From the UHGV virus genome UHGV-0184544: a DNA stretch of 27,297 nucleotides, one strand, 5' to 3'. A program made the translations under genes and the position numbers. Every line of letters begins with the position of its first letter. The stretch's first letter is position 1. The DNA comes from a virus. Below, piece after piece: positions 5,458 to 6,503 of the stretch. The notes below the pieces were generated by a model that worked only from the letters and a program-made list of their open reading frames with translations, was not told where the DNA came from and searched no databases.

Positions 5458-5654
5458 CGTTCACCGTAAAAATCATTCCTGACATGCTTGTTGAGGCATA
5501 TGGAAATCAGACCGAAGTGGCCCGAATACTGAACTGTAATCGTGCCACGGTCAGAAAATATATTGGCGATAAAGAAGGCAAACGGCACGCCGTCGTCAAC
5601 GGTGTCCTTATGGTTCATCGTGGATGGGATAAGGGGAAAGCTACTGATGCGTGA
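5454..5654 (+). CDS. ninH: NinH
   Basis: [58 protein letters not shown] matches lambda NinH ([58 protein letters not shown]). Start overlaps ninG stop (ATGA). Confidence 0.9.
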
Positions 5655-5889
5655 TATTCAGCAGGTGCCTGAACGCATGGCTTTATTCAGGTCGTCTGGA
5701 AAAGCGCATGAGCAGCGTAATAGCGGAGTTCATGGCGAAGAGTATATGAACAGATTATTCGAATGCTATATGAGACTGAAGCACGGAGATCGCTATGACC
5801 TGACACGTGATGCTGACGGTTTCTACTGCCGTGAAGTTGTGAAACGAATGTTTGAAGTGTGGTGTCATTGTAAAGGATGGGGGCTGTGA
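5647..5889 (+). CDS. Small Cys/His-containing protein with a Q-like N-terminus ([10 protein letters not shown])
   Basis: 80 aa from the ATG at 5647, which overlaps the ninH stop. First ~10 residues resemble the N-terminus of 82/QuuD-type antiterminators as I recall them; the rest diverges. Stop TGA overlaps the next ATG (TGATG at 5887-5891). Confidence 0.5.
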   Translation: MRDIQQVPERMALFRSSGKAHEQRNSGVHGEEYMNRLFECYMRLKHGDRYDLTRDADGFYCREVVKRMFEVWCHCKGWGL

Positions 5890-6503
5890 TGCGGCTAACC
5901 CCAGTATTCGGCATGGTTAACTTTATTAATGATGCTCATTTCCGCCGCATATGGAGGCATCCGAAGAAAATCATTAACTCTCGTCAGAAAGCATGGGTTC
6001 ACTACATGCTACAGGTATGGGGAAATGTTAACGCTGGTGATGATTCTCCTTGTGGTGCAATTAACGTTATTGGGCGACTGATGATTCGCAGTCAGTGGAG
6101 CGATGACAAAGCTAAGCAGATTGAGTCTGTTGTCATGCGTCTGTATGAAGAAGACGGACTACGTGGAGATGAACTCCATCAGAAAGCCCGAGAACTGGTC
6201 ATCCCTCAGTCATCGGCAGGTAATATCATTGCTCTCGCCAAAGAATCCGATGATGCTGCTTTCGTTGAACGTGTGATGGTTGAGACCTTTCATCGTGAAA
6301 GCCCTGTCCGTGATGTAGCTATTAGGCGATATTGCAATCGCGACAGCACGCAAGATATCGCCAGGATGATTTCTCAGATAACAGGAGTTGATATTCAGTA
6401 TTGCCGGAGGCGGGTCGTGTGGTGCGAGAGGGTCCTTGATTCAGAAATGTTTTATGCAATGAAGCGAGAATTGGAGAAAGAACTTCTAGTGATTGCTGGA
6501 TGA
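5889..6503 (+). CDS. Putative late-gene antiterminator (Q-like) with C-terminal HTH-like segment
   Basis: 204 aa. Sits where Q lies in lambdoid phages, immediately upstream of a tR'-like terminator and the late leader. DIARMISQITGVDIQYCRRRV resembles an HTH with nearby Cys residues. Identity inferred mainly from position. Confidence 0.55.
   Translation: MRLTPVFGMVNFINDAHFRRIWRHPKKIINSRQKAWVHYMLQVWGNVNAGDDSPCGAINVIGRLMIRSQWSDDKAKQIESVVMRLYEEDGLRGDELHQKARELVIPQSSAGNIIALAKESDDAAFVERVMVETFHRESPVRDVAIRRYCNRDSTQDIARMISQITGVDIQYCRRRVVWCERVLDSEMFYAMKRELEKELLVIAG

Follow-up and report, generated by a model that had tools for sequence, protein, structure and literature searches.

A recombination scar of two Q genes and a Q-like protein of the phrog_753 family, the probable late antiterminator, at the Q position of a lambdoid prophage

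We analyzed the Q region of UHGV virus genome UHGV-0184544, a stretch of 27,297 nucleotides (nt) that is referred to here as the window and that is a 933W-like lambdoid prophage. Two open reading frames (ORFs) on the plus strand, ORF1 of 80 amino acids (aa; ATG at 5647 to TGA at 5887-5889) and ORF2 of 204 aa (5889-6503; ATG at 5889 to TGA at 6501-6503), come directly after ninG and ninH, where lambdoid phages classically have Q. The gene order is ninG, ninH, a relic of older Q genes, a 47-aa gene contained in ORF1, ORF2, the candidate promoter PR', the candidate terminator tR', nanS-p, holin, lysozyme, Rz and terminase. The original prediction noted that the stop codon of ORF1 and the start codon of ORF2 share the sequence TGATG, and both ORFs and their overlap are present as described. 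It also likened the first ten residues of ORF1 to the start of Q82-type antiterminators and offered three possible explanations: a joint left by recombination within an ancestral Q gene, a Q that had been split or frameshifted, or a two-component antitermination arrangement.

The resemblance at the start of ORF1 proved to be real and not due to chance. Positions 5400-5680 of the window match phage PhiR12_3 at 97.5% DNA identity without a break, across ninG and ninH and into the first 30 to 34 nt of its Q82-type Q gene (MRDIQQVLERWGAW...), and a tblastn comparison matched residues 1 to 10 of ORF1 to a Q82-type Q with 9 of 10 identical. The first relic (5647-5676, plus strand) thus corresponds, by DNA homology and tblastn, to the first 10 codons of a Q82-type gene of the kind found in Stx phages, together with its ribosome-binding region; it retains its original frame and provides the start codon of ORF1. 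A second relic follows on the same strand (5673-5738) and corresponds to codons about 24 to 45 of a Q21-type Q gene (WVYSGRLEKRMSSVIAKFM). Over 65 nt, its identity was 95.4% to Q of HK75, Sf6 and CUS-3 and 93.8% to Q of phage 21. Furthermore, residues 25 to 44 of Q21 matched it by tblastn at 18 of 20 positions, in frame 2, whereas ORF1 is frame 1. The Q21-type homology stops at about 5739. The remnant of the old Q gene therefore amounts to about 92 nt, 30 nt of Q82 type and then 65 nt of Q21 type out of register.

The shift of frame could be traced to the joint itself. Both Q families have WGAW-coding DNA in common (TGGGGCGCATGG), and at this place 8 nt (TGGGGCGC) are missing relative to either parent: the joint reads GAACGC followed immediately by ATGGCTTT, against an expected GAACGC-TGGGGCGC-ATGGGTTT. 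Because of this gap, the second relic is read in the wrong frame in ORF1, and residues 11 to 31 of ORF1 are therefore an out-of-frame translation of a Q21-type gene. We searched 5,426 complete E. coli genomes for an in-frame ancestor joining a Q82-type N-terminus to Q21 and found none; a constructed in-frame hybrid gave full-length matches confined to the 18 genomes that carry the gapped version. Since no in-frame hybrid was found, the joint probably arose by a direct out-of-register crossover and not by a later deletion in a working hybrid. The same sequence, 99.3 to 99.4% identical, was present in these 18 complete genomes and in phage PhiR5_2, so the suspicion of a frameshift error did not hold and the ORF1/ORF2 arrangement is no sequencing error. 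The recombination joint inside an ancestral Q gene was accordingly borne out and could be mapped to the base, as the first relic, the second relic and an incoming cassette at 5745-6714.

The remainder of ORF1 is a gene of a different kind. Next to the joint with the incoming cassette, which lies at about 5739-5745, begins a conserved small phage protein of 47 aa (5746-5889, plus strand), the first gene of the cassette, which matched phrog_3871, a family of 48-aa proteins, with an E value of 1.8e-26 (residues 34 to 77 of ORF1 against profile positions 1 to 44 of 48). The PHROGs family phrog_17609 covered all 80 residues of ORF1. Full coverage of the 80 aa was found in only three clusters, all at least 99% identical, and the other homologues were 44 to 49 aa long and matched residues 34 to 80. 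RefSeq annotates the 47-aa ORF only and not the 80-aa form. The 80-aa frame is thus accidental, composed of the first relic, the frameshifted second relic and the 47-aa gene; its N-terminus is a recombination scar that has been fused by chance to an unrelated small phage gene. Across 26 aligned homologues, the 47-aa protein showed a mean column identity of 76%, and its AlphaFold2 (AF2) model was a helix-hairpin-helix fold with a predicted local distance difference test score (pLDDT) of 92.7; a fold search with the 47-aa protein against PDB gave no match. The description of ORF1 as a Cys/His protein stood in part only: C40 and C42 are the only near-invariant residues of the conserved core, which has no conserved four-ligand zinc (Cys/His) site, and several of the His residues belong to the out-of-frame relic.

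These observations bear on whether the small Cys/His protein, in its 80-aa or 47-aa form, acts jointly with the 204-aa protein, with the TGATG coupling setting the stoichiometry of the pair. The stop/start overlap is real, the 47-aa protein is conserved and confidently folded, and its gene lies directly 5' of the Q-like gene, stop and start overlapping, in three unrelated contexts of the Escherichia clade, namely, after RusA (L068-L072), after a 54-aa ORF (L006) and after the Q relic of the window. However, among 51 species-representative genomes with an ORF2 homologue, a homologue of the 47-aa gene was located upstream of the Q-like gene in 1 only (L006, Intestinirhabdus alba). The others carried unrelated small ORFs there (NinZ-like, NinH and others), nearly all of which overlapped the start of the Q-like gene by 1 to 11 nt, and Salmonella phage UPF_BP1 lacks the 47-aa ORF. 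Because unrelated upstream ORFs overlap in the same way, the TGATG overlap is ordinary operon packing of the nin region and no sign of a two-protein machine. Moreover, the commonest members of the 47-aa family belong to the early-left operon, where they have a DUF4222 gene on one side and xis-like (DUF1233) and integrase genes on the other, with no Q nearby, and residues 1 to 33 of the 80-aa form, an out-of-frame relic, occur in this lineage only. Joint action of the two proteins, the last of the explanations offered originally, is therefore very unlikely.

Two further observations concern the small upstream genes. The 47-aa family is a very common gene of the early-left operon: one member alone (P0164) accounts for 12,995 indexed blocks of the collection, and relatives of 44 to 48 aa in E. 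coli and Salmonella prophages (L057-L065) are flanked on one side by a DUF4222 gene or by different small ORFs and on the other by the xis-like DUF1233 gene plus integrase. Many Pantoea and Erwinia loci (L013-L054) carry a different conserved ORF of about 40 aa, with a consensus like MTDYLREKWLRLRxxRxR...NYRIIRNTAKxMG, that overlaps the Q-like start by 4 to 11 nt and is unrelated to the 47-aa protein.

Profile searches with ORF1 and ORF2, the check that had been proposed for both, returned nothing relevant in Pfam or NCBIfam, whereas in PHROGs ORF2 matched phrog_753, "anti-termination protein Q-like" (E value = 3.3e-68; residues 12 to 200 against profile positions 1 to 186 of 189), in addition to the two families already given for ORF1. 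About 200 homologues of ORF2, 203 to 207 aa long, were found across the Enterobacterales; all are named "hypothetical," and none has a precomputed Pfam domain. A HMMER profile search of 1.84 billion representatives recovered 41 relatives at 50% clustering, which form a compact, closed family. The Q-like gene occupies the position between the nin genes and the holin/endolysin/spanin genes in UPF_BP1 and in L068-L072 as well as here, and it was detected in 38 of the 5,426 complete E. coli genomes, 18 of which have the exact scar.

With the ORF2 family in hand, we considered whether ORF1 and ORF2 were formerly one Q gene that was broken by a frameshift or a sequencing error. ORF1 does have a genuine Q82-type N-terminus and a frameshifted Q21-type stretch, and for this relic alone a frameshifted Q is a correct description. 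For ORF2 it fails: the protein aligns end to end with its full-length homologues, which have the same MR(L/I)TP start, and it belongs to another sequence family, with no detectable similarity to the Q82 family and a match to Q21 that is weak and at the level of a motif. In addition, part of ORF1 is an independent gene family, and the identical arrangement recurs in complete genomes and in one phage isolate. A single gene broken in two is thus extremely improbable.

Q proteins have been described as three families, Q21 (PF06530), Qλ (PF03589) and Q82 (PF06323) (PMC9388147, Yin et al.), and we compared ORF2 with each of them. No Pfam hit to PF03589 was obtained, and tblastn of λ Q against the window gave nothing below an E value of 0.5. 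For PF06323, there was no Pfam hit in either ORF and no whole-protein match, residues 1 to 10 of ORF1 alone matching this family. ORF2 itself had no match to PF06530 at E values up to 1, and 4 of 24 members of its family matched below threshold (best E value = 0.032). Sequence similarity between ORF2 and Q21 was confined to an N-terminal motif, (T)KxQxxW...L.(L/V)WG; hhalign of the ORF2 family gave a probability of 48% against Q21 (E value = 1.8e-4) and of 19.5% against the Q21-family alignment. An AF2 model of ORF2, built with no templates, was then compared to PDB by Foldseek, and the top 12 hits were all Q21 (probability 0.95 to 1.0); the structural match extended over 121 residues at about 17% identity and was the best by a wide margin. 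ORF2 is therefore predicted to have a Q21-like fold with a C-terminal helix-turn-helix (HTH) resembling sigma region 4 (sigma-R4), and although it lies outside PF06530 by the Pfam criterion, this modeled fold is common to both. Two other candidates were set aside: a sequence search of PDB gave a spurious match to ERp29 and a marginal one to Q21 (E value = 0.82), and Gifsy-1 AntQ was rejected as a close relative, tblastn against phage records having failed to retrieve Gifsy.

No second Q was detected. Searches by tblastn with λ Q, Q21, HK75 Q and a Q82-type Q found the two relics only, both in the window and in the first 50 kb of PhiR5_2, and Pfam scans of the remaining unassigned ORFs of the window gave no Q family. 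The findings that could have spoken against a Q at this position thus came out in its favor: the family that ORF2 matches is Q-like, the window has no canonical Q at any other place, and the similarity at the start of ORF1 is significant.

We then examined the DNA downstream of ORF2 in 51 loci, comprising the window, UPF_BP1 and 49 species-representative genomes. A candidate late promoter, PR' (6528-6556, plus strand), consists of a -35 hexamer TTGCTT (6528-6533), a spacer of 17 nt and a -10 hexamer TATGTT (6551-6556). After a gap of 5 nt comes a candidate sigma-dependent pause element, TATGCT (6562-6567), and a leader, CGGAGCAAAAGCGCACTGAG, the two together occupying 6562-6590 on the plus strand; transcription would start at about 6561-6563. 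Across the 51 loci, a -10-like hexamer (at least 4 of 6 matching) was found in 43, at 4 to 6 nt upstream of a TAnGCTCGG element, and a -35-like hexamer (at least 3 of 6) in 44, with a spacing of 16 to 18 nt. The TAnGCTCGG element itself (2 mismatches or fewer) was present in 48 of the 51, nearly always 35 to 84 nt past the stop codon, some loci having TAAGCT. The register of the pattern TTGCTT-N17-TATGTT-N5-TATGCT was kept in most loci. Within the spacer, a motif G.GAAAT..AAGT, a candidate Q-binding element (QBE), was at least 85% conserved in 21 type-A loci; in Pantoea/Erwinia and some Xenorhabdus clades the sequences upstream are different, and the pause-like element and leader are near constant in all clades.

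The leader downstream of the pause element (6568-6590, about 25 nt) follows the pattern CGG(G)AGCAAAAGCGAA(C/A)(T/A)GAGC and is conserved from Escherichia to Proteus and Xenorhabdus. An RNA hairpin, considered as a possible explanation of this conservation, found no clear support: RNAalifold gave no consensus structure on the conserved leader and a GCUCGG/CUGAGC helix named by hand was 65% paired with few compensatory changes. About 95 nt further on lies a candidate intrinsic terminator, tR' (6664-6694, plus strand), with the stem GCCTCGGCA / TGTCGGGGC and a GAAA loop forming a GC-rich hairpin (6664-6685) and a T-run, TTTTTGTTT (6686-6694). The hairpin appears in the minimum free energy fold, and the whole leader folds at -51.7 kcal/mol (z = -3.15). 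A terminator-like hairpin with a T-run was found in 49 of the 51 loci, 53 to 286 nt downstream of the pause element. The cassette of promoter, TAnGCTCGG element and terminator thus spans Escherichia, Salmonella, Serratia, Erwinia, Pantoea, Xenorhabdus and Proteus, and, read from the sequences, its conservation is the strongest argument that the ORF2 family may act by Q-type antitermination.

Directly 5' of the -35 hexamer we also observed an AT-rich palindrome of 10 bp, AAAATATTTT (6507-6516), with palindromes at the equivalent place in L006-L054 (GAAAATATTTTC, TTTAGG...CCTAAA or TAGC...GCTA); clades differ in sequence and keep the symmetry. It could be an UP-like element or the binding site of a dimeric factor.

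A protein with an HTH encoded next to a late promoter might instead be an activator of that promoter, a sigma-like factor or another HTH regulator that is not a processive antiterminator. The predicted C-terminal HTH of ORF2 would suit such a role, but the hexamers upstream are those of sigma-70, spaced at 16 to 18 nt in most loci, so that a new sigma factor is not needed. Furthermore, a -10-like element past the start followed by a terminator at close range is a Q-type signature, and the best structural match of ORF2 is Q21 over its 121 aligned residues and not an isolated sigma-R4 domain. We consider this alternative unlikely.

The boundaries of the incoming DNA were sharp. On the left, homology to L006 and L068 begins exactly at the ATG of the small ORF, and the homology to L068 spans 5745-6714; because these limits recur in L068 and in other contexts, they define a mobile cassette at 5745-6714. 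On the right, homology to HK75 resumes at 6686, in the tR' T-run, and continues to 6999 at 92.7% identity, and position 6686 corresponds in HK75 to the end of its annotated Tr'. Since homology resumes at the T-run, a single exchange moved the Q-like gene together with its promoter, leader and terminator stem. Such an exchange is expected, as Q and its qut site must stay together, and in lambdoid phages Q is swapped with its cognate PR', qut and tR' as one module.

Taken together, these results make it probable that cassette replacement turned the Q position of this prophage into a mosaic joint and that ORF2 serves as the late antiterminator. The cassette would have taken the place of most of an older Q gene, bringing with it the 47-aa accessory gene, the 204-aa Q-like gene, a late promoter of its own with pause element and leader, and the terminator; the relic of the old Q would by chance have been open and in frame with the 47-aa gene, giving the 80-aa ORF. 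ORF2 is thus most likely the real late-gene antiterminator of the phage and a distant structural relative of phage 21 Q. By analogy with Q21, its C-terminal HTH would bind DNA in or near the promoter spacer, and the protein would engage RNA polymerase paused by sigma-70 at TATGCT, just past the start site. It would then ride with the polymerase and carry it past the terminator at 6664-6694, so that nanS-p and the lysis and structural genes would be transcribed.

Several points weigh against this reading. The HMMER search found no bridge from the ORF2 family to PF06530 or other Q families among its 1.84 billion representatives, sequence homology to Q21 is not demonstrable (hhalign reaching just 19 to 48% probability over about 60 residues), and the AF2 model of ORF2 is moderate, with a pLDDT of 75 and three segments below 50. 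PHROGs itself applies the label "Q-like" by inference, and a literature search, which included Gifsy-1 AntQ and pR' comparisons of Stx phages, found the phrog_753 family undescribed and no experiment on any member. A generic promoter/terminator scan missed the proposed PR' and tR', both of which were identified by comparison and folding, and we know of nothing in the phage 21 system that would correspond to the conserved leader downstream of the pause element. Finally, in Escherichia-clade prophages the 47-aa gene travels with the Q-like gene, and the two could be functionally linked, although this is unlikely.

A bolder proposal is that phrog_753 constitutes a fourth family of late antiterminators, a remote branch of the Q21 fold. 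Its loading site would combine a clade-specific spacer or upstream element with the near-invariant TAnGCTCGG and the leader of about 25 nt; the leader may take part in loading or pausing in a way that is not matched in the λ, 21 and 82 systems, and the co-travelling 47-aa protein might modulate the antiterminator in the Escherichia clade. Taken as a whole, this combined proposal is tentative and on balance doubtful.

If ORF2 acts as we suggest, the late-gene switch of these prophages is labeled "hypothetical protein" in RefSeq in 38 of 5,426 complete E. coli genomes and in many other Enterobacterales, and no functional Q fragment should be seen in the 80-aa ORF. PHROGs already flags phrog_753 as Q-like, and current understanding is not overturned. 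The family would also provide a comparative system for the essential parts of the Q21 loading mechanism, and the joint illustrates neatly the way in which lambdoid mosaics arise, by exchange within a gene at a short WGAW-coding motif, leaving a scar that extends a neighbor.

Elsewhere, the window has a gene for a CI-like repressor on the minus strand (33-743), a replication module of the helicase/primase type and nin genes, among them ninG (4888-5457; Pfam PF05766) and ninH (66 aa, 5454-5654, plus strand; Pfam PF06322 Phage_NinH, E value = 7e-37), the last 8 nt of which overlap the start of ORF1. A further mosaic breakpoint lies inside ninH at about 5510: the part to its left is similar to PhiR12_3 (helicase/primase replication module, DUF1367, NinG), and the part to its right is 97.6 to 98.9% identical to Escherichia phage PhiR5_2, whose homology starts at 5510 and whose replication module is of the O/DnaC type instead. 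The PhiR5_2 record is a complete phage genome (listed host, E. coli K-12 MG1655) with int, exo/bet/gam, N, cI, cro, cII, O, nin, lysis and structural genes.

A NanS-p-type esterase of 667 aa (7923-9926; DUF1737, SASA and DUF6645) separates the Q region from the holin. Such an esterase occupies the same place in Stx phages, downstream of stx; there are no stx genes in the window. Two strong copies of the small RNA (sRNA) family STnc100 (Rfam RF02076; 7044-7237 and 7513-7721, at 140 and 130 bits) and a third, degenerate copy below threshold (7273-7448; 30 bits) sit between the late terminator and nanS-p, and a terminator-like hairpin ends each. A tRNA-like relic at 6768-6894 scored 26.5 bits against an Rfam tRNA gathering score of 29 and is stretched over 127 nt, and ARAGORN found no tRNA across the whole window; in phage 21, tRNA genes lie at the equivalent position, directly 3' of the late terminator. 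PADLOC defense models gave no match.

Compared with known systems, the locus shares little with the Q82 family (Q82, QuuD and Q933 of Stx phages): homology to the start of a Q82-type gene covers codons 1 to 10 of ORF1 and the ninH DNA before them, but just 30 nt of that gene are left, and the rest of ORF1 and ORF2 is unlike the family. As with λ 6S RNA and the sRNA StxS of Stx phages (PMC7547250), a constitutive candidate promoter is followed by a terminator about 125 to 130 nt on, and a short terminated RNA is expected in the lysogen; the leader region, however, has no sequence relation to either RNA and no Rfam match. If the ORF2 family does antiterminate, the division of Q proteins into three families (PMC9388147) does not cover all of them at the level of sequence.

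The closest comparison is with phage 21. Q21 binds its QBE, captures a sigma-paused polymerase and forms a nozzle (10.1101/651190), and all three steps may, by analogy, apply to ORF2. The two proteins differ in length, Q21 (PF06530; PDB 6P18, 6P19 and 6JNX) having 162 aa and ORF2 204 aa. The phage 21 record shows a similar layout, with a -35 hexamer TTGACA, a QBE in the spacer, a -10 hexamer, the start site, a pause element TAAGCTG and a terminator. However, its QBE (ATTGAGCA AATGAGCA) differs from the spacer motif G.GAAAT..AAGT found here, and its terminator comes directly after the pause element, whereas here the conserved leader of about 25 nt lies between them. Moreover, the phage 21 record contains a scar of the same kind at the same joint: a pseudo-coding sequence directly 5' of Q (L005, 1383-1439) is made of 10 ninH codons and 7 foreign ones. 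In the window, by contrast, the relic is the Q gene itself, it joins two Q families out of register, and it does not end as a dead stub but extends the gene downstream.

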